Below the pieces are notes generated by a model that did no database searches, was not told the DNA's origin, and worked only from the letters and a program-made list of their open reading frames with translations. Below, one piece after another: positions 29,896 through 53,110 of a stretch of 64,000 bases of DNA. Within the stretch, counting starts at the first letter, position 1. Each line of letters opens with the position of its first letter. The position numbers and the translations under genes are program-made. Location of the stretch: assembly GCA_963825045.1 (NCBI GenBank), contig CAWGSM010000037.1:46083-110082 (forward strand), in the 5' to 3' direction. Source of the DNA: an uncultured Flavobacteriaceae bacterium. GTDB lineage: Bacteria; Bacteroidota; Bacteroidia; Flavobacteriales; Flavobacteriaceae.

Positions 29896-29980
29896 AAATA
29901 AAGACCCCTAAAAAAATAGGGGTCTTTATTTTTTATTCCATAAAAATTATCATTACACCCCTATTTTTTTAGGGGTGTAA
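29896..29980. promoter_or_regulatory. Tandem palindromes ACCCCTA-N6-TAGGGGT upstream of the P-II/amt operon (first copy may double as the crcB terminator)
   Basis: 15-bp inverted repeat 29896-29931 and 11-bp inverted repeat 29953-29980; the same motif recurs upstream of glnA. Confidence 0.75.
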
Positions 29981-30021
29981 ACTATTTTTTGCAATATTTG
30001 ACCAATATTTAATACTTAATT

Positions 30022-30360
30022 ATGAAAAAAATCGAAGCGATTATTCGTAAGTCAAAATTTGACGCGGTGAAAAAAGCACTTCACGAAACCGAAGTGAATT
30101 TCTTCAGCTATTGGGATGTTACCGGGGTTGGTAACGAAAAGCGAGGACACGTATATCGTGGTGTCTCTTATAGCACCAGTGATATACAAAGAAGGATTAT
30201 TTCTGTAGTGGTTTCCGATGAATTTCTGGAAAAAACTGTTAAAGCTATTCTGGAATCCGCTTATACAGGCTCTGTTGGCGACGGAAAAGTATTTGTCATG
30301 CCTGTAGAAGAAGCCTATCGGATACGAACCAAAGAAAAAGGTTCCGAATCCTTGAATTAA
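30022..30360 (+). CDS. glnB: Nitrogen regulatory protein P-II (GlnB/GlnK)
   Basis: MKKIEAIIR, YRG T-loop, TGSVGDGKVFV, RIRT. Confidence 0.93.
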   Translation: MKKIEAIIRKSKFDAVKKALHETEVNFFSYWDVTGVGNEKRGHVYRGVSYSTSDIQRRIISVVVSDEFLEKTVKAILESAYTGSVGDGKVFVMPVEEAYRIRTKEKGSESLN

Positions 30361-30389
30361 ACCTCTAACCCTACTAACAAAATTAAATT

Positions 30390-31604
30390 ATGGAAGCTAA
30401 TGCTGTTTTAGATTTATTATGGATCGTCGTATGTGGAATACTGGTGTTTTTTATGCAAGCCGGTTTTACACTTGTTGAGGTAGGATTCACCAGAGCAAAA
30501 AACACTGCAAATATAATAATGAAGAACCTTATGGACCTTGCTATTGGTTCAATCGCGTTCTGGATGATTGGGTACACCATTATGTATGGTGACTCAATTG
30601 GTAGCTTTATTGGTCAGCCAAGCCTATTTTATAATGTCCGTGAAGATATGCATAACCTGTTTTTCCAAACAGTATTTTGTGCTACTGCTGCCACTATAGT
30701 TTCTGGAGCCATTGCTGAAAGAACAAAATTTTCAACCTATCTGATATTTTCTCTTTTAATAACCACTCTTATTTATCCAATCTCGGGACACTGGGTTTGG
30801 CAGGGAGACGGTTGGTTAACCAAATTAGGATTTATAGATTTTGCGGGCTCTACGGTAGTTCACTCTGTGGGAGGCTGGGCCGCTCTTGTAGCCGCCGCTT
30901 TAGTTGGACCCAGGATTGGGAAATATACTAACGGAAAATCAAATGCGATCCCGGGTCATAATATGCTTTATGGGGCTTTAGGAGTATTTATCCTTTGGCT
31001 TGGATGGTTTGGTTTTAACCCGGGATCAGAACTGGCAATATCTGGCGATAGTGCTTATAATGTCTCTGGTATTGTTATTACAACCAACCTGGCTGCTGCG
31101 GCTGGAGCCATTGTCTCTCTTTTCCTTACCTGGATTCGGTATGGTCGTGCAGATATATCCATGACACTCAACGGTGCCCTGGCCGGGCTGGTAGGTATTA
31201 CCGCCGGATGTGCTGCGGTTAGCCCTTTTGGCGCATTTATTATAGGAATTATCTCCGGACTTGTAGTGGTGTTCTCCATTGAATTCGTAGATAAGGTTCT
31301 TAAAATAGATGATCCGGTAGGTGCGATTTCAGTTCACGGTGTTGTTGGAGCTGTAGGTACCCTTTGTGTAGGGCTTTTTGCCACCGATGGGGGTCTTTTC
31401 TACGGCGGCGGATTCGGACAACTTGGAGTTCAGGCCGTTGGAGTTGTAGCCATTGGTGCATGGGCTATGATCGCAACCTTTATTGTGCTTTATATTCTCA
31501 AAAAGACCATTGGTCTGCGAGTAAGTGAGCAGGAAGAACTTGGCGGTCTTGACATCCATGAGCATGGCGTGGACTCTTATCCGGAATTCGGAAACGATAA
31601 ATAA
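30390..31604 (+). CDS. amtB: Ammonium transporter Amt
   Basis: FMQAGF, DFAGSTVVH, GWFGFN, DDPVGAISVHG. Confidence 0.96.
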   Translation: MEANAVLDLLWIVVCGILVFFMQAGFTLVEVGFTRAKNTANIIMKNLMDLAIGSIAFWMIGYTIMYGDSIGSFIGQPSLFYNVREDMHNLFFQTVFCATAATIVSGAIAERTKFSTYLIFSLLITTLIYPISGHWVWQGDGWLTKLGFIDFAGSTVVHSVGGWAALVAAALVGPRIGKYTNGKSNAIPGHNMLYGALGVFILWLGWFGFNPGSELAISGDSAYNVSGIVITTNLAAAAGAIVSLFLTWIRYGRADISMTLNGALAGLVGITAGCAAVSPFGAFIIGIISGLVVVFSIEFVDKVLKIDDPVGAISVHGVVGAVGTLCVGLFATDGGLFYGGGFGQLGVQAVGVVAIGAWAMIATFIVLYILKKTIGLRVSEQEELGGLDIHEHGVDSYPEFGNDK

Positions 31605-31611
31605 TAAAAAA

Positions 31612-31637
31612 ACGGAGCGTTTGGCGGAACGCTCCGT
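31612..31637. other. Intercistronic hairpin between amt and porin
   Basis: ACGGAGCGTT-tggcgg-AACGCTCCGT; U-tract only on the minus strand. Confidence 0.6.
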
Positions 31638-31726
31638 AAAAATCATAATCACTTCAACGATCGGTGTAAATCTGATCTATCTAAGCATCTAAACTTATTA
31701 ATCAATTAATTAACCCCTGTTTCGTT

Positions 31727-32821
31727 ATGAAAGCAATTACAAACTCAAAATTAAAAAAATTTCTGTTCCTTCTACCAATAATCCTAATAACCTCCACGCT
31801 TATTGCCCAGGAAGAAGAAGAATCACCAAAATTTTCTATCAGCGGTAGTGTGGACGCCTATTTTAGGACCAATTTTAACGGCCTAAATAAATCGCAGAAT
31901 ATATTAGGTGGGGACGAGGTAACACTTAGCCCGGCTGCGCCTGCAACTTCTTTTGCCAATGATCCAGGATTTGCCATTGGGATGGCCAATATAATTTTAG
32001 GATATGAAGGAGATAAAGTAGGCTTTGTTGCAGACCTTGTTTCTGGGCCACGTGGTGAAGATGCGGTATTCTTATCGGCAGCCTCCACCAATATAGTAAA
32101 CCAATTATATGCTTACTATAAAGTGAATGATGCCTTGAAATTCACCCTTGGTAACTGGAATACTTTTCTTGGCTATGAGGTTATATCGCCGGCAGCGAAT
32201 TTTAACTATTCCACCTCCTATATGTTTTCTTACGGGCCATTTTCTCATACAGGGCTGAAAGCAGATTTCAGTTTTGATGATAACTGGACAGGGATGCTGG
32301 CAATTATGAATCCTACAGATTATACCGAATTCAACCCAATAGGAAAATATTCTTTTGGAGGACAGGTTGGTTATTCCAATGATTCAGGCAGTGCATATCT
32401 AAATCTCCTGTATGGTGAACAATCACTTTCAGACGATGCACTATTCCAGATTGATCTCACAACTGGCTGGGATCTTACTGAGACATTCTATTTAGGTTTT
32501 AACACCACCTATCAGGATACCGAAGGCATTGGTTTTTATGGAGCCGCTTTATATCCTCAGCTGTCTCTTTCCGACAGTTTCGGGATAGGACTTAGAGCAG
32601 AATATTTTAAGGAACTGGAAGATGGTGGGATCGTGTATGATGCAGATACCAGCGTAACCGCATTTACACTTACCGGAAGCTACCAGACCGGAGGATTAAT
32701 AATTAAACCTGAATTTAGAATAGACAGTGTTTCAGACGACTATCCGGCATTTCTGGACAAGAACCTTGATCCATCAAATGAGCTTGCTTCATTTTTAGTT
32801 GCGGCCATTTATGCATTCTAG
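31727..32821 (+). CDS. Outer-membrane porin-like beta-barrel (BBP2-type)
   Basis: Signal peptide; ISGSVDAY, GYEVISP, NFNYSTSYMF, PFSHTG; C-terminal Phe. Confidence 0.8.
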   Translation: MKAITNSKLKKFLFLLPIILITSTLIAQEEEESPKFSISGSVDAYFRTNFNGLNKSQNILGGDEVTLSPAAPATSFANDPGFAIGMANIILGYEGDKVGFVADLVSGPRGEDAVFLSAASTNIVNQLYAYYKVNDALKFTLGNWNTFLGYEVISPAANFNYSTSYMFSYGPFSHTGLKADFSFDDNWTGMLAIMNPTDYTEFNPIGKYSFGGQVGYSNDSGSAYLNLLYGEQSLSDDALFQIDLTTGWDLTETFYLGFNTTYQDTEGIGFYGAALYPQLSLSDSFGIGLRAEYFKELEDGGIVYDADTSVTAFTLTGSYQTGGLIIKPEFRIDSVSDDYPAFLDKNLDPSNELASFLVAAIYAF

Positions 32822-32824
32822 ATT

Positions 32825-33439
32825 CTAGTGCTTATCATATGATTTTACACCGGCAAATATTTCTATATCTATGTCATTTTCTTCAGGAGGTATGGGACAG
32901 GAATATTTGCCGCTATAAGCGCAGTAAGGATTGTATGCCTTATTAAAATCCAAAATTACCTCTGTTGATTCAGGAATTCTCAGATCGATATATCTCCCTC
33001 CTCCATAGGTTGTTTCTCCATTAGTAAGATCTGTAAAAGGCAAAAACAGATAATCAAAATATTCGGGATCCTGGGTGAGTTCCTGGTTTTGATAAACATT
33101 CAGTTTAAACTTTCTGCCTTTTAAAGTAAAATATAATTCTCCGTATTTAACATATATGGGAAGCCTGTCCGTACTTGTTTTCATGGCAAAAGGAGGTTCG
33201 GCAGGAGTTCTTACAAATTCAGCATTTATTCTGTATTCGGGGTTTATTTCAAAAAATTCCAGCTCTTCAAAACTTTTCAAATCATCCTTATCCAAAGGTG
33301 ACTTCTCCGGATCTTCATATTCCCTATTTAATCCTTCCTGAAATTCTTCAGCAGTCTCTTCTTCTGAAGTTTGAGCATTTATCGAAATGAAAGCTGAACA
33401 AATAATCATTATTATCAATGATAGAATACTTTTAAGCAT
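32825..33439 (-). CDS. DUF1684 domain protein
   Basis: LFLPFTDLTNG, YGGGRY, DFNKAYNPYCAY, CPIPP. Confidence 0.9.
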   Translation of the reverse strand: MLKSILSLIIMIICSAFISINAQTSEEETAEEFQEGLNREYEDPEKSPLDKDDLKSFEELEFFEINPEYRINAEFVRTPAEPPFAMKTSTDRLPIYVKYGELYFTLKGRKFKLNVYQNQELTQDPEYFDYLFLPFTDLTNGETTYGGGRYIDLRIPESTEVILDFNKAYNPYCAYSGKYSCPIPPEENDIDIEIFAGVKSYDKH

Positions 33440-33520
33440 ACTTATATTCTTTTCTGAAGCTTTCAAAATTAATCATTAAACACTTAAAATTTAATTTAAT
33501 TTTGAAGCACAAACCGACCA

Positions 33521-34726
33521 ATGCAAAAAATTTTTAAATCTTATTTTGACTCCTTCGGCGGTCTGCGGAAAGAAATTTGGCTGTTATCCTTGATCACCCT
33601 GATCAATCGTGCGGGTACCATGGTGATCCCATTTCTCTCTCTTTACCTTACCAAAAGTCGAAATTTTAGCCTGGAAGAGGTAGGATGGATCCTTACTTTT
33701 TTTGGTCTCGGATCGGTTACAGGCTCATGGCTTGGCGGTAAGCTTACTGATAAAATTGGACATTACAGGACTATGGTCGGAAGTCTTATTGGTTCCTCTA
33801 TTCTTTTTGTTCTGTTACAATTTCCAACTTCTTTCTGGGGTATATGCCTGGGTATTTATCTGGTAATGACCGTTGCCGATATTTTTAGACCGGCGGTTTT
33901 TGTGGCTATTAATGCATACAGTAAGCCTCAAAACCGAACACGATCGGTGACCCTTATAAGACTTGCTATAAACCTCGGGTTTTCCTCAGGACCCGCCATT
34001 GGCGGACTAATTATTGCAACTGCCGGATATAGCGGACTTTTCTGGGTAGATGGAATTACCTGTTTAATAGCAGGACTTCTATTATTAAAACTTTTGCATC
34101 CTAAACGTTCCCAGGCTGAGGAAGAAGATATAATCACCAATGCAAAAACTGCAATAAACGACAGGTTATACCTTCTTTTTATAGCCGCCATGATCTTATT
34201 TGGACTTATTTTTATTCAGTATTTCTCGACCATGCCGTTATTCTATGCAAACTATCATATGCTGGACGAACGTGAAATAGGACTTTTACTGGGATTAAAC
34301 GGACTTATTATCTTCCTGTTTGAAATGCCACTTATAAAATTTCTGGAATCTCGAAACCACTCCGCTTCCGGTTATGTGATATTAGGACTTTTATTAACCG
34401 CCCTCAGTTTTCTGGTGATAAACCTAACCGACTGGACCGGGATTTTAATTGTTGGGATGCTTTTGGTAACGGTAGGTGAAATGATCGCTTTCCCATTCTC
34501 AAACAGTTTTGCTCTTAGTCGGTCTGATGGAAAAAAACGCGGTTCATATATGGCCCTTTACAGTATTGCTTTTTCGATAAGTCATATTTTTGGACACAAC
34601 TCTGGTATGCAGCTCATTAACCATTTTGGATATAAATTCACCTGGAACACGATGATGATCCTGGCTCTTGTGGCCTGTTTATTATTAATTCTACTGAAAT
34701 CGCTACTGCAGAGGGAAAATACTTAA
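33521..34726 (+). CDS. MFS transporter
   Basis: GGKLTDKIG motif A; about 12 TM. Confidence 0.9.
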   Translation: MQKIFKSYFDSFGGLRKEIWLLSLITLINRAGTMVIPFLSLYLTKSRNFSLEEVGWILTFFGLGSVTGSWLGGKLTDKIGHYRTMVGSLIGSSILFVLLQFPTSFWGICLGIYLVMTVADIFRPAVFVAINAYSKPQNRTRSVTLIRLAINLGFSSGPAIGGLIIATAGYSGLFWVDGITCLIAGLLLLKLLHPKRSQAEEEDIITNAKTAINDRLYLLFIAAMILFGLIFIQYFSTMPLFYANYHMLDEREIGLLLGLNGLIIFLFEMPLIKFLESRNHSASGYVILGLLLTALSFLVINLTDWTGILIVGMLLVTVGEMIAFPFSNSFALSRSDGKKRGSYMALYSIAFSISHIFGHNSGMQLINHFGYKFTWNTMMILALVACLLLILLKSLLQRENT

Positions 34727-36150
34727 TCTTTGTTTTCGATCTTTTCATCATAATACCTGGCTTCCCCCAGATATTTATAAATGATTTCATTATATTCTTT
34801 AGTAAATTTTAAATCAAGAATTCCGTCAATATTATAAAGAGCATCAATATCTGAATAGCCTGTTTTAAGAAGGTCTTCCAGGTATAATAGCGCAGTTTCA
34901 TAATCTCCGTCTCCACCGGCCAGGGAAATGATCTTAAGGTAAGCCTCTGGATCATTCTTCCTAATGGCAGTTCGAAGAACACTAATAAATATTTTGGTGT
35001 CTATAGAATAATTCCCTTTCATAATATTTCGAAACTCAAATTCCGAAACAGAATCGAGATAACCATGCAATCGATAAGCTACATTTGCTTTAGCCTGTTC
35101 ATTACTATTTTTAAGTTTCTCCAATTCATCCACCTGATAAGCCCACCAGCCAATATTATTAAAATTGGCAGCCATAATATCTGATCTAAGTAAATATTCA
35201 TACTCATCCTGCTGCTCCTTTTCAAAATAAATTGCCTGTTTAAAATTGCGCCGCTGAGATTTAAAACCATCGGTTCGTTTAATATCTTTCATACGATCTT
35301 CGATAGCATCTTCAAAACCAAAGTCCTCATATTTTTCCTTCATTCGGTCAAGCTTTTCATACGCCTGATAATAATTTCGAGAGCGTCTTAAGGTCTCCAC
35401 ATATTCAATCTCATCTTCATAAAGCTTTCGTATAAAATTTTCATCAGCCGGCCTCAGGCCTTTTCTTAAGGCTTCCAGGGTAAAACCCTTCATTGCGTTT
35501 GAAACCACTTTAGTTTCAGGCCATTGATCTTCCTTACCTTCAAAATAATAGATATCTGTGGGAAAATCCAGATCATCATAAAACCTTAAATATTCTTCCA
35601 TTTCATAGACCATATAATCCTTTTTCCCGGCAAGACCTATAAACATATAGGGCTGTTCTTTATTAATATACCTGGGATTTACAAATGAATTTCCAATAGC
35701 CATGATCCCCGCCATCTCCTTATATATTAAAGGTAAAGCCGAAGCAACCTGAGCACCTTCTGCCATCCCGGCTGAATAAATAAGTTTCTGATCTACAGGA
35801 TAATTGGTGATTACCGTATTTATCATAGCAGTAGCTGTTTTCACTATACTGTCTATAGGTTTGGATTTTAAATCCATATTCAAAGACGCAACAAGGTATT
35901 GCTGCTCTTCGGCGGCAGTTCTAAAAAGATTAGCTGTATTCCTGCCCCTTCCTTGAGGATCAAAAACAAAAATAGTAGGCCATGCTTTTTCCCCGGAATA
36001 ATTGGATGGGATATAAACCGAATAGGTTATATCGCTGATCCCGGCTATAGGTAAAGAGTCGGTTACAGCTCCACGGAGTACTCTTAATTCCTGAGCCGGA
36101 GAAAGACCGCACACAAATAAAGCTATAAATAAGAATAGGAACTTTTTCAT
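34723..36150 (-). CDS. Secreted alpha/beta-hydrolase-like protein with helical/TPR C-terminus
   Basis: YSVYIPSNY, WPTIFVFDPQGRG; nucleophile elbow reads GMAEG. Confidence 0.65.
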   Translation of the reverse strand: MKKFLFLFIALFVCGLSPAQELRVLRGAVTDSLPIAGISDITYSVYIPSNYSGEKAWPTIFVFDPQGRGRNTANLFRTAAEEQQYLVASLNMDLKSKPIDSIVKTATAMINTVITNYPVDQKLIYSAGMAEGAQVASALPLIYKEMAGIMAIGNSFVNPRYINKEQPYMFIGLAGKKDYMVYEMEEYLRFYDDLDFPTDIYYFEGKEDQWPETKVVSNAMKGFTLEALRKGLRPADENFIRKLYEDEIEYVETLRRSRNYYQAYEKLDRMKEKYEDFGFEDAIEDRMKDIKRTDGFKSQRRNFKQAIYFEKEQQDEYEYLLRSDIMAANFNNIGWWAYQVDELEKLKNSNEQAKANVAYRLHGYLDSVSEFEFRNIMKGNYSIDTKIFISVLRTAIRKNDPEAYLKIISLAGGDGDYETALLYLEDLLKTGYSDIDALYNIDGILDLKFTKEYNEIIYKYLGEARYYDEKIENKD

Positions 36151-36204
36151 AGATAATGAGAATATATGCTTAAAGATAATGAATTGTATCATGAATCATT
36201 CCAT

Positions 36205-36236
36205 AAAAAAAGCCCACATAGTACTATGTGAGCCTT
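36205..36236 (-). terminator. Rho-independent terminator
   Basis: GCCCACATAG-ta-CTATGTGAGC stem with an A7 tract on +. Confidence 0.65.
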
Positions 36237-36262
36237 AAGCGGTTTTATCAATATTATTGCTA

Positions 36263-36460
36263 TTAAGAATCTACTCTTTGATATTGCATCTCAGGTTTCT
36301 CTGGAAAAAATAATTTCGCCATAAGAGAAACTATCAGTAAATCGGTAAAGATCAGGAACATCACCCTAATTACTTCAATACCATAAAACGATAGCCCGGT
36401 AAATCCTACTAAGCCTGTGACCAATGCAAGCACTAAAAATAATAACGTCTTTCTTTTCAT
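36263..36460 (-). CDS. DUF1328/UPF0391-like small membrane protein
   Basis: FLVLALVTGLVGFTG pattern. Confidence 0.7.
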   Translation of the reverse strand: MKRKTLLFLVLALVTGLVGFTGLSFYGIEVIRVMFLIFTDLLIVSLMAKLFFPEKPEMQYQRVDS

Positions 36461-36652
36461 AACTTCCTGTTCAATTTTAAAACAAATCTAGTTACATATG
36501 AGACGAAATTTTCATAAGGAAATTACAATTAAAATCAATTTAACTAAAACAAAACTCTTTGATAACTATGTGTTAATAATAGGGCTTCAGGCACAGACTT
36601 TTTAACAGGATATTGAGCTGGAAAAAGTTGAGCGTTCAGATTTATTAAGAAG

Positions 36653-37102
36653 TCAAATGCTAATTATTTTTTTAGTAACCGGCGCATTCTCAATGACATT
36701 GGAAAGCACAATATGCGTTCTGGTCTCTCCATAGGTAATAAGTTTGTCTATGAGCTTTTCCAGGTGCGCCTGATCATGAAGAATAACTTCCATTATAATA
36801 TTTTCATTCCCTGTGATCCTGTAACAATTGATCACCTCCTTAAAGCTGGTTACTGTTTCCAGAAAGGCTTTTAGTCTTCCGGTAAATGCCCTTAGAGTAA
36901 TGATCGCTTTTAAATGATATCCCAGTTTTTGTGGGGATAACTGAGTATGGTAAGATCTTACGATCCCCGCGTCCTCCATTTTCTTTACCCGTTCGGCCAC
37001 CGCCGGTGAAGTAAGTCCTACTTTTCGCCCAATTTCAGAAAAAGAAATTCTTCCATTTTGCTGAAGCTGCTCCAGGATTGCCCAGTTTAATTGATCCACC
37101 AT
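36653..37102 (-). CDS. Lrp/AsnC family transcriptional regulator
   Basis: LQQNGRISFSEIGRKVGLTSPAVAERVKKME, CYRITG. Confidence 0.93.
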   Translation of the reverse strand: MVDQLNWAILEQLQQNGRISFSEIGRKVGLTSPAVAERVKKMEDAGIVRSYHTQLSPQKLGYHLKAIITLRAFTGRLKAFLETVTSFKEVINCYRITGNENIIMEVILHDQAHLEKLIDKLITYGETRTHIVLSNVIENAPVTKKIISI

Positions 37103-37208
37103 ATTTAAAGTAATTATATTATATTTCTTTTAAAATTAAAGATAAATATTAATTCTACAATTTTTTTAAAATTAATTTCCGCATTTCTCGTATTACATTA
37201 GTGGAAAA

Positions 37209-37616
37209 TTGCAACCAGTGAACTATTTTTCAGGAAACCGAAGATCAGGAAGATCAGCTTTATACTTTAAAGCCCAGGAGATCATGCGCATCTCCAGACG
37301 AATTTCTGATTATCTCGTACCCGATCTGGCCATATTAAACGATCGTGGAACCGAGGATACCAATGTTTACTTCACAGGGGATATCATAAGACACTCTCAC
37401 TCCCTGGTAACTAATATTGACAAAGCTGAAAGTGAATATTTTCAGGATAGCCGCATGAAGTATGTTACCAGTGTAGCTCAATTAACTGAAAGATTATATA
37501 ATGCCTGTGAGCGTTTGGAATATGTAAACAGCAATGGCCGTGAGTTTTTAAAGATCCTCCGAACCGAATTGCAAAAGTTTAGAAAACTCCAGCGTACCTG
37601 GAAGTTAAGTCTTTAG
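37209..37616 (+). CDS. Hypothetical all-helical protein resembling the four-helix-bundle (IVP/Avd-like) fold
   Basis: LYFKAQEI..., IIRHSHSLVTNIDKAE and LRTELQKFRKLQRTW pattern; TTG start. Confidence 0.55.
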   Translation: MQPVNYFSGNRRSGRSALYFKAQEIMRISRRISDYLVPDLAILNDRGTEDTNVYFTGDIIRHSHSLVTNIDKAESEYFQDSRMKYVTSVAQLTERLYNACERLEYVNSNGREFLKILRTELQKFRKLQRTWKLSL

Positions 37617-37620
37617 ATAA

Positions 37621-39420
37621 CTATCTTTTATAACCCGGAATCCCGTTATCCTCCGGAACGCCCATATCTTCCAGTAATTGTTGCCAGCGGGGATCATTAT
37701 GAAATTTTTTAAATGTAGGGTAATAAACGGCTTCAGTTAAGGTAGGATCCTTTATTTCTAATGCTTTATGCAACCATTCAAAGGTCTTTTCCCGGTTGCC
37801 CATAAAGGCGTAGATATCGGCAAAATCGGCGGCTTCTTTCGGATAATTTTTCATTAAATTATCCAGCATCTTTAAGGCTTCTTTTTTCTGCCCGGCCTGG
37901 TAAAGCGCTTTAATTTTTCCATAGGGTTTCCAGAATGGATCAGGTTCTTTTTCTATTTCCTGCATAGCTTGTTCCGTTCTTCCTAAACTCAGTAGAATCA
38001 TAGTTTTGAAGCTACTGGTAGCTAATGTACCCGGCTGATATTCTTCATAAATATTTATTTGTTTTAATGCTTCCTCTTTATTTCCCCTCCAGTAATTATC
38101 AACACCCAATACTAAATGATTGATATATAATAAAGGATCCAATTCCAATGCCTTTTTATCATTCCTAATAAATTCAGTGAGAGAACCAAAGGTCATTAAT
38201 CCTTTTCTTCTCAAAATCTCCGCATTTTCAGGTTCCAGTTCAAATGCCTTTTCCGCATTTAACTTTGCTTCTCCAAATTCAAATTTTACCATAGCCCATC
38301 TAGCCAGTTCCATATACCCCTTGGCATATTCAGGATCAATTTCAATACTCTTTTGTGCCGCGCTCATTCCTAAATTATAGGCTTCCTCTTTGAGCTCATT
38401 AGCAATGCTAAATCCTAGATAATTATAAATTTGACTCTCTAACTCCCAAATAGGAGCATAGTTGGGATCAATGGCATTAGCCTCTTTCAGTAAATCCAAA
38501 GCTTTTTCAATAGATTCACTGGTTGATTGTTCCCATAAATGTTTTGCTTTTAGATAGAGCGTATAGGCTTTTGTATCTACTTCTTTTGACTTTTTACCCA
38601 GCAAACTCACTTCCAGTTTTTTGCTTACCGCCGCCGCAATTTCGTCCTGGATCTTAAAGATATCGTCGAGTTTACGATCGTAGGTTTCCGACCAGATATG
38701 AATACCGGTGGAAATATTGATAAGCTGAGCAGTTATCCTGACCGTATTTCCCGCTTTTCGTACGCTGCCTTCCAGCAGGTATTTCACATGTAATTTCTGC
38801 CCGATCTCTTTAGTGGTGGCTTCCTTATCTTTAAAATAAAAGGAGGAGGTACGGCTGATCACCTCCAGGTCCCGATTTTTAGCCAGGTAATTCAGGATCT
38901 CTTCGCTGATACCATCGGCAAAGTATTCCTGATCTTCATCTGAACTCATATTTTCAAACGCCAGAACGGCGATGGATTTGTCGGGAGCCTTATTTTGGGC
39001 TAGAAGTTGTTTATCCGAAGTAGAGGGACTTTTTTGGGTATCTGAAACAGCAGGATTAACTTCGGAAACATTATAAAAAAGGTTGATTCCCAGTAAAACT
39101 ATAGCGATTACCAGCGCGCCGATAATAACTTTATTTAACTGGCTGTCGGTTTGGTGACTTATGGAATCTTTAGGATCTACATTTTTAGTCTTTTTAATGC
39201 CTTCTTCGGTGATCTCATATTTCCAGGAAAACAACAGCCATAATGGAAAACCGATTACCAACACGATAAGTACAAATCGTAAAAAATAATCGGGAACACG
39301 CAATGCAGGAAGGATGATGGAAAACACCTGAATAATAATCCAGGAGCCTACCAAATAGGCCAATCCCGCCTTGATGACATTGCGACGTTTTAATTCTTTA
39401 AAGTAATTCTTAAAATTCAC
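37621..39420 (-). CDS. Membrane protein with TolB-N/FlgO-like domain and TPR repeats
   Basis: ELKRRNV 3-TM N-terminus, KSIAVLAFENMS, YFADGISEEI, LEGSVRK, WSETYDR, then TPRs. Confidence 0.85.
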   Translation of the reverse strand: MNFKNYFKELKRRNVIKAGLAYLVGSWIIIQVFSIILPALRVPDYFLRFVLIVLVIGFPLWLLFSWKYEITEEGIKKTKNVDPKDSISHQTDSQLNKVIIGALVIAIVLLGINLFYNVSEVNPAVSDTQKSPSTSDKQLLAQNKAPDKSIAVLAFENMSSDEDQEYFADGISEEILNYLAKNRDLEVISRTSSFYFKDKEATTKEIGQKLHVKYLLEGSVRKAGNTVRITAQLINISTGIHIWSETYDRKLDDIFKIQDEIAAAVSKKLEVSLLGKKSKEVDTKAYTLYLKAKHLWEQSTSESIEKALDLLKEANAIDPNYAPIWELESQIYNYLGFSIANELKEEAYNLGMSAAQKSIEIDPEYAKGYMELARWAMVKFEFGEAKLNAEKAFELEPENAEILRRKGLMTFGSLTEFIRNDKKALELDPLLYINHLVLGVDNYWRGNKEEALKQINIYEEYQPGTLATSSFKTMILLSLGRTEQAMQEIEKEPDPFWKPYGKIKALYQAGQKKEALKMLDNLMKNYPKEAADFADIYAFMGNREKTFEWLHKALEIKDPTLTEAVYYPTFKKFHNDPRWQQLLEDMGVPEDNGIPGYKR

Positions 39421-39752: not shown

Positions 39753-39763
39753 CGGCGATCTGC

Positions 39764-43539: not shown

Positions 43540-44244
43540 ATGAAAAAATTAATTACTCTTGCAGCTCTAATCATTTTTTCTTCCTGCTCTGAACTGCAGC
43601 AAATCGCATCTCAAATTCCTTCTGAATATGGCGTAACCGATGCCGAAATAAGTTCAGGACTTCGACAGGCTCTTGAATTTGGAGTTGAGAAAGAAGTTAC
43701 AAAGCTTGCGAAAGAAGATGGATTCTTTAAAAATGAACTGGTACGTATTATTTTACCTCCAGAACTTCAAAAAGTAGATAATACCTTACGGGATCTGGGA
43801 CTTGACGCTTTAGCCGATGAAGGTTTAAAAGTATTGAATCGTGCTGCCGAAGATGCTGTAAGTGAAGCTGTTCCAGTGTTTGCCAATGCCGTAAAAGGAA
43901 TTACCTTTGCCGACGCTCGTAATATTCTTTTGGGTGCCGATAATGCCGCTACAGTATATCTTACAAACAAAACTGAGCAAGAATTGTATAGTCGTTTCAA
44001 CCCTATTATCACCAACTCCCTTAATAAAGTAGGTGCCACCCAAATATGGAAAAATATTATTGATAAATATAATTCATTACCCGTCACCTCGAATGTAAAT
44101 CCAGATTTACCCGATTATGTAACTAATGAAGCCTTGGATGGCGTCTTTGTCATGATCGCTCAGGAGGAAAAAGATATCAGGAACCGCGTTGCAGCAAGAA
44201 CTACAGATCTTCTACAAAGAGTATTCGCTGTTCAAGATCGATAG
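43540..44244 (+). CDS. DUF4197 lipoprotein
   Basis: Lipobox FSSC; GLRQAL, LNRAAEDA, EEKDIR. Confidence 0.9.
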   Translation: MKKLITLAALIIFSSCSELQQIASQIPSEYGVTDAEISSGLRQALEFGVEKEVTKLAKEDGFFKNELVRIILPPELQKVDNTLRDLGLDALADEGLKVLNRAAEDAVSEAVPVFANAVKGITFADARNILLGADNAATVYLTNKTEQELYSRFNPIITNSLNKVGATQIWKNIIDKYNSLPVTSNVNPDLPDYVTNEALDGVFVMIAQEEKDIRNRVAARTTDLLQRVFAVQDR

Positions 44245-44401
44245 GATTTTTCTTACATATTCTAATTTTTTAACAATTCTTCTTACAATTCACCTCTATT
44301 TTAAAATAAGCTTAACTACCAATTATTAAAATGTAAGTACTCCACTTCTTAGATTTGTATGCGTGTAGAAAGATTTATGCAAAAGAAAATACCCTACTAT
44401 C

Positions 44402-44584
44402 ATGTTCAGAATTTTTGAAAACAAAACAAAAGAGGAAAGGCTGTGTGCCAAATATTGCAGTTTAATGCAACGGGCGTATAAAGCAGCCTTAATTGATAAA
44501 GAACAAAGCGATCGACTCAATTCGAGGGCGAAGAAAATTCTTCAGGAGTTAAAAAGAATGAATTGTTCCCTGGTAGAAGCCTAG
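44402..44584 (+). CDS. Small hypothetical protein (Lacal_2735-like)
   Basis: KTKEERL..KY..LM..AY....DKEQSD pattern. Confidence 0.6.
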   Translation: MFRIFENKTKEERLCAKYCSLMQRAYKAALIDKEQSDRLNSRAKKILQELKRMNCSLVEA

Positions 44585-45351
44585 TGAAATTCTTTAAAGT
44601 AATCCATAGCCTCCATTAATCGGCTGCCATACCAGCTGAAATACTCTCCGTTTACAATTTTCACACTTTTAGAACACTCAATAAACCGTTGTTTATGCTC
44701 GTCCTTAAAAGGAAAAGGCTCTGAAGACAACATACATAAATCAATTTGCTTATCCTTTAATTCGCTAAATGATGTAGTGGGATATCTTTCTTGAGAAAAG
44801 ACATTCTCAAAATTATTCAATTCGAGCATTGCATTAATAAAAGTGCCATTTCCAACTACCATTAAAGGTTCATTCCAGATAAAATAAGCTACTTTCCGCC
44901 TGCGGGAAGTCTTAGCTAATTTTTGTAATATATCGGCTTTTTTCTGAATCGAATTTATCATTGTGGTTGCGAGCTCGTCACAATTCAAGATCTTTCCGTA
45001 GTCGGCCATAAGTTTATAAGCGTCTTCAAGATCGGAAATATCAGAAATATGAACTGGCGCTATCTTTTCCAGCGCTTCGACCATTTCTTTTGTATTTTCT
45101 TCTTTATTACAAAGGATGATATCCGGTTCCAGTTCTTTAATCTTGCGCAGATTGACTTTTTTCGTACCTCCTACCCTGGTCTTAATCTGTTTCAGAAAAG
45201 CAGGATGAATACAAAAATGAGTAATTCCCATAATATATTTTTCCAGCCCAAGATCCACTAATAATTCAGTCTGGCTGGGAACAAGGGATACTATACGTCG
45301 GGGAATATCATTCAGCTGCAAATTTCGGTCTAAATGATCCCTGATTTCCAT
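44581..45351 (-). CDS. Helical-backbone metal/cobalamin-binding protein (BtuF-like)
   Basis: RIVSLVPSQTE, GGTK, NKEEN, SSEPFPF, WYGSR. Confidence 0.85.
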   Translation of the reverse strand: MEIRDHLDRNLQLNDIPRRIVSLVPSQTELLVDLGLEKYIMGITHFCIHPAFLKQIKTRVGGTKKVNLRKIKELEPDIILCNKEENTKEMVEALEKIAPVHISDISDLEDAYKLMADYGKILNCDELATTMINSIQKKADILQKLAKTSRRRKVAYFIWNEPLMVVGNGTFINAMLELNNFENVFSQERYPTTSFSELKDKQIDLCMLSSEPFPFKDEHKQRFIECSKSVKIVNGEYFSWYGSRLMEAMDYFKEFH

Positions 45352-45357
45352 ATCTAA

Positions 45358-46176
45358 TTAAAGCTTATCCAGTTCGGCTGCCATCTGGTTTTGAAGAGCT
45401 TCGGCTTTCGCTCCTGCTATTTCTGCGAAATTGTCAGCATCTGAAGCATAAATGATCTTTCTGGAAGAATTTACAAGTAAGCCTACATTCTTAGTGATTC
45501 CATATTTGCAAACTTCTTCAAGGCTGCCACCCTGAGCCCCGACACCGGGAACCAGTAAAAAACTTTCAGGAATAATCTTTCTAATATCGGCTAGATATTC
45601 GGCTTTAGTCGCTCCCACAACATACATCAGGTTCTCTGAATTATTCCACTCCCTTGATTTTCTAATTACCTTTTTATAGAGATCTTCACCCCCGGTTTGA
45701 AGCGTTTGAAAATCGAAAGCGCCTTCGTTGGAAGTCAATGCCAGTAATATGGTATGCTTATTAGTAAATTCGAGAAAAGGTTCCACAGAATCCTTTCCCA
45801 TATAGGGTGCTACGGTAATCGAATCAAATCCAAGATCTTCGAAAAAAGCTTTCGCATACATACGGGAGGTATTACCAATATCTCCGCGTTTGGCATCGGC
45901 AATCGTATAGATCTCGGGGTATTCAGAATGTAAATATTCAATGGTTTTTTTAAGAGCTATCCAACCATCTACTCCTATGGCCTCATAGAAAGCGATATTT
46001 GGTTTATAAGCCACACAATACTTATGTGTCGCATCTATAATAGCCTTATTAAAGCTGAAAACAGGGTCTTCTTCTGAAAGTAAATAGGTTGGCATCCTCT
46101 CAAGATCGGTATCCAGGCCTACACATAAAAAAGATTTTTTTTTGAAGATTTGCTGCGTCAGCTCTTGTGAAGTCAT
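45358..46176 (-). CDS. pyrF: Orotidine-5'-phosphate decarboxylase
   Basis: [35 protein letters not shown]. Confidence 0.96.
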
Positions 46177-46337
46177 TTATCAGTTATCAGTTATCAGTTA
46201 TCAGTTATCAGTTATCAGTTATCAGTTATCAGTTATCAGTTATCAGTTATCAGTTATCAGTTATCAGTTATCAGTTATCAGTTATCAGTTATCAGTTATC
46301 AGTTATCAGTTATCAGTTATCAGTTATCAGTTATCAG
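46177..46337. repeat. Perfect heptamer tandem repeat (TTATCAG)x23; reads (CTGATAA)x23 on the mRNA strand
   Basis: Read directly; abuts the pyrF ATG with no spacer. Confidence 0.98.
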
Positions 46338-46401
46338 AAGTTAAAAATTTAAATCGTACTTTAAAAGATTTAATTAAAATTTTCAATTTTCAACTTTGAA
46401 C

Positions 46402-47478
46402 TTATAGTATATCTGAATTCTCTTTCAGTTTTTCGGTGTTTTCGGCCAGTCTCAATTCATCAATGATCTTTTGAATATCACCATTGATAATATTGGACAG
46501 GTCATATAATGTAAGATTGATACGGTGATCTGTCACCCGGCTTTGGGCATAATTATACGTACGGATTTTCGCGCTTCGGTCCCCACTGGAAACCATGGAA
46601 TTCCTTTTGGCTGCATCGGCTTCCATCTTTTTGGCAAGTTCCTGTTCGTATAATCTTGAACGAAGTACACGAAAAGCTTTTTCCTTATTCTTATGTTGTG
46701 ATTTTTGATCCTGACACTGGGCCACAAGACCTGTAGGCTCGTGAGTAAGACGCACTGCAGAATATGTGGTATTTACCGACTGACCTCCGGGACCAGACGA
46801 ACAGAAGTAATCTATTCTCACATCTTTTGGATCGATCTCTACATCGAATTCCTCTGCCTCAGGCAAAACCATCACCGTAGCTGCAGAAGTATGAACACGT
46901 CCCTGAGTTTCTGTTTGCGGAACACGCTGAACACGGTGTACACCGGCTTCAAACTTCATGGTCCCATAAACTTCTTCCCCCGAAATTTCAAAGATCATTT
47001 CCTTAAAACCTCCGCTGGTTCCTTCGCTAAAATCGACAATATTATGTTTCCAGCCTTTGCTCTCTACATATTTGGTATACATACGGTATAAATCTCCTGC
47101 AAAAATACTGGCCTCATCCCCACCGGTTCCGGCACGAATCTCCATGACCACATTCTTGGCATCCTCAGGATCCTTAGGAATAAGCATCATCCTGATCTTT
47201 TCTTCAAGTTCAGGCAATTGTTCTTTAGCCTCTTCCAATTGAAGTTTAGCCATTTCGCTCATTTCAGGATCGCTCCCGTCTGCAATTATTTCTTCGGCTT
47301 CCTTTAAATTATCGGTAAGTTCCATATACTTTTCCCTCTCCTCCATCAAGGCCTTGAGGTCTTTGTATTCCTTATTTAATTCAATATATCGCTTTTGATC
47401 TGATATTACATCCGGCTGAATAATCAAATCGTTCACCTCATCAAATCTTTGTTTTACGATATTAAGTTTCTCAATCAT
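46402..47478 (-). CDS. prfA: Peptide chain release factor 1
   Basis: [15 protein letters not shown] (PxT), [12 protein letters not shown]; TAAATTTG promoter box at 47510-47503. Confidence 0.97.
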
Positions 47479-47541
47479 ATAATCTTACTGATTTTAGGAT
47501 AGCAAATTTACGATAATTTAGGTGAATTGTAAGAGAAAGCT

Positions 47542-48261
47542 TTAAAGGCTTTCTAACTCGGGAACAGCTTCATGACTTCTACTGAAACCTGCAAATTTCA
47601 CTAGCCCGGCTATCCCCAAAAGATAAAAGAATCTGTCGGGAAAATAGAATTCATTGAATTCAAGGTAATAGGCAATAAAAGAGGTAATATCAGAAAATAC
47701 CAGACATAAGGTTGCGGCAGTAAAGAAAAAAGAAGTTTTATTAGCATAACGGTTACTGTATGAAATTGAGGCTATAACCATTGCGATCATCACTATCCCA
47801 TATATAAAGAAAAGGGAGTCCAGGTAAGGATACGCAAATTTTTCGGGCACCATATCAAGAAGTATAAACAACATGGCTAGATTCAGGCCAAATACAAGGA
47901 CGAAGATAATCTTCTGAAACAGGTTGGTTTTTAATTTTTTGAGTTCGGGTATAACGGCAAGCACCAATAGTGTATATGCTGAAATTCGGGCCAGAAAAGT
48001 AAATGTATTTACCCAGGCATATTCATAATAAAACAATAGTACATCGGCAATGATGAATAAAATAAAAACACTCATCATCTTACGGCTATAAGAATCTCGC
48101 CATAGCAAAAGACCAAAAAATATACTGGTACTAATTAACCTTGCCCAGCGGCTTGCATCCTGATCATATTCAAAAATGACATAGCAATTTGTAAAAAGCA
48201 ACAGTACCGTTGCGATCAATAAGAAAGACTTAAAAGGCATTAATTTTTTTGATTGGTTCAA
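47542..48261 (-). CDS. Multi-pass membrane hypothetical protein
   Basis: About 8 hydrophobic segments; LCLVFSD resembles a YhhN-like motif. Confidence 0.65.
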   Translation of the reverse strand: MNQSKKLMPFKSFLLIATVLLLFTNCYVIFEYDQDASRWARLISTSIFFGLLLWRDSYSRKMMSVFILFIIADVLLFYYEYAWVNTFTFLARISAYTLLVLAVIPELKKLKTNLFQKIIFVLVFGLNLAMLFILLDMVPEKFAYPYLDSLFFIYGIVMIAMVIASISYSNRYANKTSFFFTAATLCLVFSDITSFIAYYLEFNEFYFPDRFFYLLGIAGLVKFAGFSRSHEAVPELESL

Positions 48262-48422
48262 AAAACTTACGTAAAAGTAGATAAAGTGGTTTTAAGTAAG
48301 CTTACTTTATTTTACAAATACCACTAATAATCAGAATATTAACATTTATTTTTTTGCAAAAAAAAGAAAGTTTCGGGAGGTTTTATTAATTAATCATATA
48401 TTTTAACTGCTCAATCTCATAA

Positions 48423-48731
48423 ATGTTTAGAATTAAGAATGTCTTTCTTAAAGCCAGGGTAGGATTTCATTTCTACAAAAAACTATGGATTAGTTCGGCC
48501 GGACTCAACCTCTTGCTTATCTTTCTTCAGAATCCCATCGAATCAACGCTCCTCATAAAGATATTTTTGATAGGACTTATTTTTGCAGAATATAAATACC
48601 TGGATACAAACAACAAACTTTTGTTTTATAAGAATTTCGGGATCACTCCCCTGAACCTTTTTATTTATACCGTATTTCTTGATCTGGTACTGAGCATTTT
48701 GATGTATAAAATTATTAACCTTATTCAATGA
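48423..48731 (+). CDS. Small membrane protein partner of the ABC ATPase
   Basis: LFYKNFGI motif; ATGA overlap with the downstream ATPase. Confidence 0.65.
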   Translation: MFRIKNVFLKARVGFHFYKKLWISSAGLNLLLIFLQNPIESTLLIKIFLIGLIFAEYKYLDTNNKLLFYKNFGITPLNLFIYTVFLDLVLSILMYKIINLIQ

Positions 48732-49381
48732 TCTTTGAACTTGACAACGTAGAATTAGGTTTTGATGGGAAAGTCCTTCTCTATGGGGTTTACCTAAAAG
48801 CAGAGAAAGGCAGAATCACAGGAATTATGGGTCCTAACGGAAGTGGTAAAACAAGTCTTCTCAAGGTGTTTTTTGGAAGTTTAGTATGCAATAACAAGTT
48901 GGTACGAATAGACGGAAAAGGAACTCTCAAACCATTGTATTCAAAGAAAAAAGTACAATTATTAGCCCAGACCGATTTTCTTCCCACCAGCATAAAATTG
49001 AAAACACTTTTTAAGTACTGCCGGGTATCCTGGGATGAATTTATTTTAAAGTTTGAATCTTTCAGGAACTATCAGGACGAAACAATAAAAAAATTATCGG
49101 GAGGAGAGAAAAGAATCCTTTCTACCTGGCTGATTTTAAAAAGTCCTTCAGATTTTGTCATGCTCGATGAACCGTTTACTCATCTTGCCCCTATTTATAA
49201 GGAGATCATTAAAAATGAAATCCTGGTCGAAAAGGACAACAAAGCGATACTTTTGACCGACCACCTGTATAAAGATCTTATTGAAATTTGCGATGAGCTT
49301 TATTTACTTAAAGATGGTTGCACAAAACCTATTAACGGTCTGGAAGAATTAAAAACAGCAGGATATATCAGTAATTTCTAA
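48728..49381 (+). CDS. ABC transporter ATP-binding protein
   Basis: GPNGSGKT, LSGGE, LDEPF, LTDH. Confidence 0.88.
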   Translation: MIFELDNVELGFDGKVLLYGVYLKAEKGRITGIMGPNGSGKTSLLKVFFGSLVCNNKLVRIDGKGTLKPLYSKKKVQLLAQTDFLPTSIKLKTLFKYCRVSWDEFILKFESFRNYQDETIKKLSGGEKRILSTWLILKSPSDFVMLDEPFTHLAPIYKEIIKNEILVEKDNKAILLTDHLYKDLIEICDELYLLKDGCTKPINGLEELKTAGYISNF

Positions 49382-50557
49382 TATTCAAAATTCCCGTGTT
49401 CACTTTTAATGCTTAGTTTTTTAGTATTTGACTCCTCAACCCTACCAATGATCTTCGCATCAATATCAAAAGATTTCGATATTTGGATGAGCTTTTCAGC
49501 AGTTTCCGGAGCAACATATAATTCCATCCGGTGTCCCATATTAAATACCTGGTACATCTCTTTCCAGTCGGTTTTACTTTCCTGCTGAATCAATTTAAAA
49601 AGAGGCGGGGTTTTAAAAAGATTGTCTTTAATAATATGAAGCTTATCGATAAAATGAAGGATCTTCGTCTGTGCTCCACCACTGCAATGAACCATTCCAT
49701 GTATGTTTTCACTTCCTATATCATAAAGGATTTTTTTAATCACTGGCGCATAGGTCCGGGTTGGAGAAAGTACAAGCTTTCCTGCATCAAGTGGACTATC
49801 TTCAACTTTATCGGTTAGTTTCTTAGTTCCGGAATACACTAATTCTTCGGGAATAGAGCTATCAAAACTTTCCGGGTATTTTTCCGCAAGTATTTTCGAA
49901 AATACATCGTGACGGGCAGAGGTTAATCCATTACTTCCCATTCCGCCATTATATTCTTTTTCATAAGTAGCCTGTCCAAAAGAAGCCAGACCAACAATCA
50001 CATTTCCGGGTTTGATATTGGCATTATTGATCACCTTATCTTTTCGGATCCTTGCGGTTACTGTGGAATCTACTATAATAGTTCTCACCAGATCACCCAC
50101 ATCGGCAGTTTCCCCTCCGGTAGAATGAATTTCGACCCCAAAATCCTTCAATTCGGCAATAAGTTCTTCAGTCCCATTAATGATAGCTGAAATCACTTCG
50201 CCCGGAATTAGATTTTTATTTCTTCCGATAGTTGAAGAAAGAAGAATATTATCTGTAGCTCCCACACAAAGCAAGATCATCGATATTCATAATAAGCGCA
50301 TCCTGAGCGATCCCTTTCCAAACCGAAAGATCTCCGGTCTCTTTCCAGTACATATAGGCAAGGGAAGATTTGGTGCCGGCGCCATCGGCATGCATGATCA
50401 AACAATGCTCATCACTGCCGGTCAAATGATCAGGTACAATCTTGCAAAATGCTTTCGGGAAAAGGCCTTTATCCACATTTTTGATCGCGTTATGGACATC
50501 TTCTTTTCCTGCGGAAACACCCCGTCCTGAATATCGCTTGCTTACTTCTTTACTCAT
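49378..50557 (-). CDS. purM: AIR synthase (PurM), with an apparent +1 frameshift near 50272-50277
   Basis: RGVSAGKEDV, HADGAGTK, MNIDD|LLCVGA, GGETAD, HCSGG, VFNMG. Confidence 0.9.
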
Positions 50558-50627
50558 GAGATTTTACTTAGAGGTATCAAAGATAATTAGTTTAAACAGT
50601 TCTGGTAAATTCTGCGAAATTTTAAAT

Positions 50628-50655
50628 AAAAAAGCCACGCTTTTCAGCGTGGCTT
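50628..50655 (-). terminator. Terminator of glnA
   Basis: AAGCCACGCT-tttc-AGCGTGGCTT with an A-tract on +. Confidence 0.8.
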
Positions 50656-50679
50656 CAAAATATTCCTTTTTACATAAAA

Positions 50680-52859
50680 TTATCTTGTAAACAACAACTC
50701 TCTATATTTGGTCAATGGCCAAAGTTCATCATCCACAAAATTCAAGTTTATCACAATGATATCTTATCTCTTCGAAGTAAGGTTTCACATCATCGCAATA
50801 TGCGAATGCTTTTTCCTCAGCATCCTCGATCTTATTAGCAACTTTTCTCGCTTCGATCATCGCATTAACATTAGAGTTGATACTTGCAATATGAGCCGAA
50901 ATACTTTCAATAATCTCCAGTTGCTCTTTCGCATGTCTTGCAAAATCATTGTATAAATCTCTTTAAGTCCGCGTACATTTTCAATTAAGATATTCTGATA
51001 ACGAATAGCCGTAGGGATCACATGATTTCTGGCAATATCCCCAAGAATACGTCCTTCTATCTGAATTCTCATCGCATATTCTTCCAGTTCGATTTCATGA
51101 CGAGCTTCGATCTCGATCTTGTTCATAACTTCCAATTCTTTGAAAAGTGCAATAGTTTTCTTACTATACCTGTGCTTTAAGAGCCTCTGGTGTAGTTTTA
51201 TTATTACTTAGTCCACGTTTTTTAGCTTCTTTTTCCCAGGCTTCACCATAACCATCTCCTTCAAAACGGATATTTTTAGATTTTTTGATATATTCTCTAA
51301 GAACATTAAAGATGGCATCATCCTTCTTCATTTTCTTATCCTTAATAAGCTTATCTACTTCTACTTTAAATTCTTTAAGCTGCTTGGCACGATAGTATTT
51401 AATACAGTCATTGGCATTGGCACAGTTGGCAGTGAACCAACCGCTCGAAATTCAAATTTATTTCCTGTAAAAGCAAAGGGAGAAGTTCTGTTTCTATCGG
51501 TATTATCAAGAAGAATTTCAGGGATTTTACCAACAACATTTAGTTTAAGATCAGTTTTTTCCTCTGGCGAAAGTTTACCATCGGTCACTTTTTCAAGTTC
51601 ATCCAAAACCTTGGTTAGCTGAGAACCAATAAATACTGAAATAATTGCCGGAGGTGCTTCATTTGCTCCCAATCGGTGATCATTACAGGCACTTGCGATA
51701 GATGCTCTCAATAAATCTTCATAATCATGAACCGCTTTTATGGTATTGATAAAGAAGGTAAGAAACTGAAGATTTTTCATTGGTGTTACCCGGAGATAAC
51801 AATTGATACCTGTATCTGGTCGCAAGAGACCAGTTATTGTGTTTACCACTACCATTGATTCCGGCAAATGGTTTTTCATGCAACAAGACACTTAAAATTA
51901 TGTCTTTCCGCAACTTTTTCCATCACATCCATGATCAATGAATTATGATCAACCGCAAGATTAGCTTCTTCAAAAATAGGAGCAAGTTCAAACTGATTTG
52001 GTGCCACTTCATTATGACGTGTTTTAACCGGAATACCCAGTTTCATACATTCTATTTCAAGATCCCTCATAAAAGCGATCGCTCTGGAGGAATAGATCCA
52101 AAATAATGATCATCCAATTGTTGACCTTTAGCCGGTGAATGCCCTAAAAGAGTTCTTCCGGTAAGAGTAATATCAGGTCTTGAAGCGACAAGAGCAGTAT
52201 CAATTAAAAAATATTCCTGCTCCCAACCAAATGTAGCATTTACTTTTTTAACATTTTTATCAAAATATTTCACAACATCTGTTGCCGCATCATCAACTGC
52301 CTGCAATGCTCTTAACAAAGGAGTTTTATTATCAAGGCTTCACCTGTATAGGAAACAAAAATCGTAGGAATACAAAGAGTGTTCCCCATATAAAAGCTGG
52401 AGAAGTAGGATCCCAGGCGGTATAGCCACTTGCTTCAAAAGTATTTCTGATTCCTCCACTTGGAAAACTGGAAGCATCAGGTTCTTGTTGCACTAATTGG
52501 CCTCCTCCAAATTTTTCAATTGCCATTCCTCCCCTAATGGTTCAAAAAAAGAATCATGTTTTTCGGCAGTAGCTCCTGTTAATGGCTGAAACCAGTGAGT
52601 ATAATGTGTTACTCCTTTAGAAATCGCCCATTCTTTCATTCCTGTGGAAATATGATCGGCTACATTCCGGTCAATTTTTTTGCCCGTACTTCATGCTTCC
52701 AGTCACATTTTCAAAAGCTTCTTTAGTAAGAAACTGTCTCATAACAGTTTCATTAAATACGTTACTGGAGAAAATTTCTGATCTTCTTCCGGGCTCATCA
52801 ATCCTAACAGGCTTGCGGTTTAAAGTTTCTTTTAAAGCTTGAAATCGTAAAGTTGACAT
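50680..52859 (-). pseudogene. glnA: Glutamine synthetase type III, broken into many frames (pseudogene or low-quality sequence)
   Basis: Fragments carry [81 protein letters not shown] and WPLTKYRELLF. Confidence 0.9.
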
Positions 52860-53034
52860 ATGTGTTGTTGTTGATTTTAAAATTTGATATTGAACATTTT
52901 ACCTTTATAAATTCAATTTTTCTAATTAAAAAGTCGGTCTATATACTATTTAACCGACTTTGAAATGCGAATATAATATTCTGCAATGAGAAATTACAAA
53001 ATTTTCCCATAAAAATTACAAGTTAAAAACACAA

Positions 53035-53110
53035 TCCCCTATTGATAACAGGGGTGTAATTACAATATTTATTAATTTATAAATTTTCACCCCTATTTTT
53101 TGAGGGTGTT
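53035..53110. promoter_or_regulatory. Tandem ACCCCTA-N6/7-(T)AGGGGT-like palindromes upstream of glnA
   Basis: TCCCCTA-N7-CAGGGGTGTAA (53035-53059) and CACCCCTA-T6-GAGGGTG (53088-53108). Confidence 0.65.

Follow-up and report, generated by a model that had tools for sequence, protein, structure and literature searches.

Described systems and the present locus

Flavobacteriales play a major part in recycling organic matter in the sea, in fresh water and in soil. Described regulators act through boxes such as GTA-N8-TAC (NtcA), TGTNA-N7-TNACA (GlnR/TnrA) and GGAA-N6-TTCC (NrpR), the site of the CRP-FNR family being TGTGA-N6-TCACA, and promoters served by two activator dimers are laid out with one site covering the upstream promoter element and a second site 52–53 bp higher up. 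In this work, we analyzed a 64,000-nucleotide stretch of DNA (the window; contig CAWGSM010000037.1, positions 46,083 to 110,082 of the forward strand, assembly GCA_963825045.1) from an uncultured Flavobacteriaceae bacterium, in which pairs of the palindrome ACCCCTA-N6-TAGGGGT stand upstream of glnK, amt and a porin gene and, again, upstream of the gene for type III glutamine synthetase (GS III). These palindrome pairs are probably the binding sites of one conserved dimeric nitrogen activator, which remains putative, and the operator pair is widely conserved and apparently undescribed. In the literature covered, with subscription journals and supplements outside that coverage, no description was found of the motif, of a Bacteroidota nitrogen regulator or of a transcriptional nitrogen regulator of Flavobacteriales. 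The motif is not described in the available passages of PMC2864571, PMC5320631 and PMC3878776, whose supplements could bear on the point.

As judged from its sequence, the element resembles the operators of the NtcA, GlnR and NtrC regulons, yet it has the defining features of none of them. With NtcA it shares amt, P-II and GS as targets, and with NtcA and the class II and III promoters of the CRP-FNR family a palindrome that replaces the upstream element, followed by a second site about 53 bp further up; relative to the predicted −7 boxes, the class II position and a second site 52–53 bp upstream are both found here. However, CCCCT-N8-AGGGG differs from GTA-N8-TAC as well as from TGTGA-N6-TCACA, and some motif-bearing genomes are without a protein with a cNMP-binding domain. 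NtrC, TyrR and activators with a Fis-type helix-turn-helix (HTH) likewise use palindromes of 17–18 bp with an A/T-tract centre in tandem, whereas the promoters here look like those of a housekeeping sigma factor. From GlnR/TnrA, AmtR and NrpR, the motif is set apart by box sequence only, being unlike their boxes.

For cyanobacterial NtcA-activated promoters, PMC3898017 places the NtcA site near −41.5. The heptamer half-site TACCCCT is identical to that of the Escherichia coli NarL/NarP sites, for which passages of PMC4549865 give a 7-2-7 arrangement, the engineered palindrome TACCCCTAAAGGGGTA and lone half-sites, which occur here too; the half-sites of the present motif, however, are 8 bases apart and not 2 (7-8-7 versus 7-2-7). 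Another palindromic global-regulon motif of Bacteroidota, that of Cur (BT4338) in Bacteroides (wwwTATGTTnTAnAACATAwww, found by phylogenetic footprinting), is unrelated in sequence, and its targets are carbohydrate genes according to passages of PMC3878776.

The four sites and their conservation

The window holds four putative operators, none of which is assigned to a strand:

29896..29931 (core 29904-29923): site 1, putative distal glnK operator, 27.9 bits, within a hairpin of 15 pairs that ends in a T tail
29953..29980 (core 29957-29976): site 2, putative proximal glnK operator, 31.9 bits
53035..53055: site 3, putative promoter-proximal GS operator, weak (14.0 bits), spacer longer by one base
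53089..53108: site 4, putative distal GS operator, 23.6 bits

Both glnK sites match ACCCCTA-N6-TAGGGGT perfectly and are separated by 53 bp, as an earlier note made from the sequence alone had stated. The near copies before GS III also lie where that note had placed them, 53.5 bp apart from centre to centre. It had ascribed a one-nucleotide length deviation to each; this holds for the site at 53035 (CCCCT-N9-AGGGG, one base over the standard spacer), while the site at 53089 has the standard spacing and differs by substitutions only (CCCCT-N8-AGGGT). Sequencing errors are not needed to account for these deviations, because the GS sites of relatives are degenerate as well (9–31 bits).

In the whole source genome (a 3.55-Mb assembly, 84% complete), ACCCCT-N8-AGGGGT occurs exactly only twice, both times at glnK. 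A single match is by itself unremarkable, since each of the other spacers from 2 to 15 also gives 0–2 exact matches. A scoring matrix was trained on relatives (52 upstream regions), with the source genome left out, and returned the consensus ACCCCTA-W6-TAGGGGT, which differs from the NtrC, GlnR/TnrA, NtcA and NrpR boxes, in agreement with the earlier note. Sites 2, 1 and 4 gave the three highest matrix scores of the genome. Site 3 lies in the background range (16 real matches of at least 14 bits versus 15 in reversed DNA) and is weak taken singly, yet correctly spaced; all four sites are genuine. The genome-wide matrix scan for further regulon members gave nothing above background beyond the glnK and GS promoters, and the gdhA promoter of the source genome is without the motif.

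Within the genus, P-II was found in 23 of 24 genomes and the start of GS III in all 24, with the sites at nearly fixed positions upstream of both. A strong site, mostly paired, precedes glnK at all 21 usable loci, so that orthologous promoters do conserve it, and all six exact matches in four complete same-genus genomes lie at glnK or GS. The conserved form of the motif is CCCCTA-W6-TAGGGG.

A scan of GTDB for the exact pattern returned at least 120 loci. Among the 120 matches listed, 89 lie within 450 bp upstream of nitrogen-assimilation genes, namely P-II (42), GS III (30), Ald (6), Amt (6), porin (5), type II glutamine synthetase (GS II, 5) and GltB (4), where some loci enter the per-gene counts twice. 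The share at nitrogen genes was 62/70 for named Bacteroidota, 27/40 for short untitled loci and 0/10 for named members of other phyla. Named carriers among these matches are Flavobacterium, Polaribacter, Tenacibaculum, Flagellimonas, Salegentibacter, Christiangramia, Cellulophaga, Winogradskyella, Chryseobacterium, Schleiferiaceae and Crocinitomicaceae. The targets apparently form a small putative nitrogen-assimilation regulon of glnK-amt-porin, GS III, GS II, gltB and ald.

GS III was found in 62 genomes of a separate set of 80, leaving 18 without it. Of 61 GS III upstream stretches, 55 were placed and 53 scored, one being too short and one same-genus row being omitted. Scores of at least 14 bits were reached by 26 of these 53 regions, compared with 1 of 231 in a control set taken upstream of other genes, and half-site pairs 50–56 bp apart were present in 25/53 versus 4/231. 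Together with the 89 of 120 listed matches, this bears out a strong association with nitrogen genes. Full or half sites stand before GS III in most Flavobacteriales families examined and in some families outside the order; the motif thus reads as order-wide, and the earlier description as Flavobacteriaceae-specific has to be given up. Around amt (60 class-wide loci), the motif is clear in some families only among the matches listed. An order-wide pattern search with one mismatch allowed matched 71 of 151 genomes and was too noisy for profiling. Twenty additional matches comprised six at nitrogen genes, three hairpins between convergent genes and otherwise intragenic or unrelated loci, and none of the twenty precedes a regulator gene. 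At one further locus (L169), a perfect motif is contained in a palindrome with 15-bp arms between the divergent genes gldB and nadE, where the source genome has none.

Spacing and promoter geometry

The two sites of a pair are 51–54 bp apart in 74 of 74 site pairs, which confirms the fixed spacing of about five helical turns, and at some promoters (loci L151, L179 and L018) three or more sites or half-sites follow each other in steps of about 52–54 bp. Promoter boxes were predicted from sequence as follows:

29993..30000, + strand: predicted glnK −7 promoter box, one mismatch to TAnnTTTG, which we take to be the Bacteroidota −7 consensus
52968..52975, − strand: predicted GS III −7 promoter box (TATATTCG)

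The centre of site 2 lies 26 bp upstream of the predicted glnK −7 box, which puts its right half at the position of the −33 element; the corresponding class of 24–27 bp comprises 40 promoters of relatives. Sites 3 and 4 are 70 and 123 bp from the predicted GS box, and the position of the site 3 centre recurs as a class of 68–70 bp in 19 promoters of relatives. The GS pair of many relatives lies between divergent GS II and GS III genes, with one promoter about 25 bp away and the other 70 bp. A TTG at the −33 element was seen in 3 of the 40 promoters of the 24–27 bp class versus 6 of the 18 in the 36–38 bp class, and the consensus of the target promoters shows no −24 GG. The distances from site centre to predicted −7 box fall at 24–27, 35–38, 46–50, 54–58, 69–70 and 77–80 bp and are phased at 10.6 bp with R = 0.62 over 21 distinct values, a value reached by 0 of 20,000 random draws, although this statistic overstates the phasing, as the genomes are kin and the 77–80 bp class is the 24–27 bp class plus 53 bp.

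The fixed pair spacing together with the helical phasing to the promoter box suggests an activator. Besides the kinship of the genomes, several points weigh against this interpretation. The promoter positions are predictions from the −7 consensus, and a site over the −33 region is compatible with a repressor too. Moreover, 27 of the 53 GS upstream regions score below 14 bits, including those of three genomes of the same family (G048, G092 and G323), and a scan of 90 of the 943 predicted proteins encoded around amt at 60 loci gave no transcription factor of the common families.

Candidate binding proteins

The best named candidate for the binding protein is the RprX-RprY two-component system, although we consider this assignment doubtful. 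The OmpR-type RprY was found in 30 of the 31 motif genomes (those with site scores of about 14 bits or more) and is absent from 16 of the 18 genomes without GS III, so that its presence agrees with that of GS III in 73 of 80 genomes; here and below, a protein is absent or not found with respect to the given query in the given assemblies. Five GS-bearing genomes without RprY have site scores of −1, 3, 6, 11 and 20 bits, and the last of these, a 20-bit site without an RprY match in G321, counts against the candidate. In addition, the GS-less genomes are small and have lost many regulators, and such co-loss confounds the agreement between RprY and GS III. OmpR-type proteins also mostly bind direct repeats. 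Reported RprY targets in passages of PMC5706477 are nqrA and stress genes, not nitrogen genes, and a term search of PMC6032018 and PMC3646045 gave no RprY binding consensus.

A sigma-54 activator without a receiver domain was considered as well. It accounts for the one Fis-HTH protein per genome in 5 of 5 motif genomes and is encoded here by the following gene:

L245:1495-2754 (G000 C16): receiver-less AAA+/Fis-HTH protein gene, between miaB and lptE

We disfavour this protein and regard it as quite unlikely to bind the motif. All 80 genomes encode it, even the 18 that lack GS III and those as small as 0.3 Mb, and none of nine sigma-54-like promoters of the source genome has the motif upstream. 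Those of dnaK (G000 C35 near 16454) and grpE (window 21819-22436) are preceded by TGACA/TGTCA repeats, which are possibly the binding site of this activator; passages of PMC12316311 link sigma-54 in Flavobacteriia to chaperone genes. In two families, the match to the activator stops near residue 310–336 (7/7 members of f3 and 3/4 of f9), and its DNA-binding end may have diverged there. Beyond RprY and the sigma-54 activator, the rest of the probability goes to a family outside those profiled or to an unannotated protein.

Several other regulator families were set aside, mainly by their distribution. One Crp orthologue common to the first five genomes is absent from 6 of the 31 motif genomes, and PF00027, as the mark of any CRP-family protein, was not found in 4 of 20 site-bearing genomes (G213, G034, G207 and G208). 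As G213 (one contig, 99%) carries a 26-bit site and G034 (92%) two strong sites, the lack of a cNMP-binding protein in these four genomes argues against an NtcA analogue. For NtrB-NtrC, no receiver-bearing Fis-HTH protein was present in any of five small motif genomes. Rrf2 proteins (IscR/CymR) were found in only three of five motif genomes, and the copies of the source genome adjoin cysteine and iron-sulfur-repair genes. The most conserved Lrp/AsnC paralogue is absent from 10 of the 31 motif genomes and occurs in 5 of the 18 without GS III, PF13404 gave no match in G217, and the Lrp/AsnC regulator of the window (36653-37102, 4 kb downstream of the porin gene) has close matches in only three of five motif genomes. 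PhoB and OxyR occur in five of five genomes, but their gene neighbours indicate phosphate and peroxide control.

A nadE-linked NarL-type regulator, suggested by the match at L169, was not found in G228, G247, G028, G217 and G336; G217 has no GerE-HTH match above cut-off, and no NarL-type orthologue is common to five motif-bearing genomes. The NarL-type response regulator that follows nadE (L248:1057-1692, G000 C37, outside the window) has an apparent glutamate at the usual phospho-acceptor position and is 94–95% identical in two same-genus genomes. A comparison of G293 with the source genome, covering 800 of 1672 kb, yielded no new candidate, and a pattern search of source-genome open reading frames of at least 90 amino acids found no small MerR/TnrA-like protein. 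These exclusions shorten the list of candidates, with RprY as one that can be named and tested, while the strong and well-defined operator pair offers a ready bait for a pull-down of the regulator.

Alternative explanations

Site 1 starts 43 bp past the crcB stop and folds into a 15-pair stem (−25 kcal/mol) with a U tail. Over 23 same-genus loci, its outer-arm pair covaries (CG 10, TA 5, AT 2, GC 1, GU 4, mismatch 1) while its core does not, and the T content in 10 bases is 8.4 at distal sites versus 4.4 at proximal sites. A GC-rich hairpin, a U tract soon after the stop and compensatory changes are features that site 1 shares with intrinsic (Rho-independent) terminators, and it is likely the crcB terminator with an operator inside, an arrangement that would explain why, in most genomes, no copy comes closer to perfection than site 1. 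In contrast to such terminators, the core is invariant and is repeated where no transcript ends. It could still be argued that all palindromes are RNA hairpins, acting as terminators or as the target of an RNA-binding protein, with no DNA-binding protein involved: site 2 folds as well, and the perfect matches at L261, L262 and L277 are plain hairpins between convergent genes. This explanation is highly improbable in our view, for shuffled sequences fold about as well as sites 3 and 4 (z about −1.4) and the C-G pairs of the core are never swapped. Pair-breaking changes outnumber G-U-compatible ones at the proximal glnK sites, and the GS sites show mismatches instead of compensatory pairs. Sites also occur between divergent genes (GS II/GS III and porin/gltB), above promoter boxes and as lone half-sites 53 bp apart, and an Rfam scan of the 64-kb window matched no family. 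The unswapped core, the pair-breaking changes and the positions between divergent genes mean that RNA pairing does not explain the sites, and, taken overall, the motif is most probably a DNA site.

If a protein binds there, it might instead repress under plentiful nitrogen, either by obstructing the −33 region or by DNA looping, in the manner of GlnR, AmtR or NrpR. The proximal glnK site over the predicted −33 position would suit this, as would a few GS promoters (4 rows) where just 9 bp separate a site from the predicted box. We nevertheless hold repression to be unlikely, because the nearest site at many GS promoters lies 36–38 or 69–70 bp above the −7 box, clear of every core element, and because the promoter phasing and the missing −33 element fit activation better. 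Less likely again is a conserved regulator tuned to something other than nitrogen status, such as an envelope or ion signal in the case of RprY, that drives the assimilation genes incidentally. The presence profile of RprY fits better than that of any other candidate, the sequence of its sensor RprX shows an N-terminal membrane anchor and predicts a long outside domain, and the roles given for the pair in parts of PMC3646045 and PMC5706477 are in sodium and oxidative stress. Yet strong sites stand almost only before nitrogen-assimilation genes among the matches listed, and the same holds for the six exact matches of the four complete same-genus genomes. An activator responding to nitrogen is the reading that we consider likely.

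Proposed mechanism

Sequence, conservation, gene association, spacing, phasing and the covariation in the outer arm of site 1 are shown by the data. We infer the promoter positions, the cooperative binding of a protein, activation and a nitrogen signal. In this mechanism, a putative activator would switch on the genes for ammonium uptake and glutamine/glutamate synthesis when nitrogen is short. Two dimers would bind on the same helical face, 52–54 bp apart. Of the two at glnK, the proximal one over the −33 region would contact RNA polymerase and the distal one the second alpha subunit, while at the GS promoter the pair would act at a greater distance, with centres 70 and 123 bp above the −7 box. 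The crcB transcript would end in the hairpin of site 1, which would double as its intrinsic terminator. Taken further, nitrogen assimilation in Flavobacteriales may be run by an undescribed master activator outside the known nitrogen-regulator families, a proposal to which we give an even chance. Such an activator could be RprY repurposed for an inverted repeat or a member of an unrecognised DNA-binding family, and it would work as two dimers five turns apart at promoters of the housekeeping sigma factor, one of its operators forming part of a terminator.

Genomic setting

The genes around the sites are the following:

29482..29853, + strand: crcB, fluoride exporter gene (TIGR00494 match above cut-off)
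30022..30360, + strand: glnK, P-II protein gene
30390..31604, + strand: amt, ammonium transporter gene (TIGR00836 match above cut-off)
31727..32821, + strand: BBP2 outer-membrane porin gene
50680..52859, − strand: GS III gene, in several frameshifted pieces

The earlier labels P-II, Amt, porin (here BBP2) and GS III were upheld. Frameshifts split GS III (window 50680-52859) and the adjoining purM-like gene (49378-50557); on contig C6, the same is true of an Rrf2 gene. Since all three genes are affected, indel errors of the assembly are likelier than decay of the only GS found. GS II and gltB were not found in the 84%-complete assembly of the source genome, and a Ca/Na antiporter gene occupies the place where many relatives have the divergent GS II.

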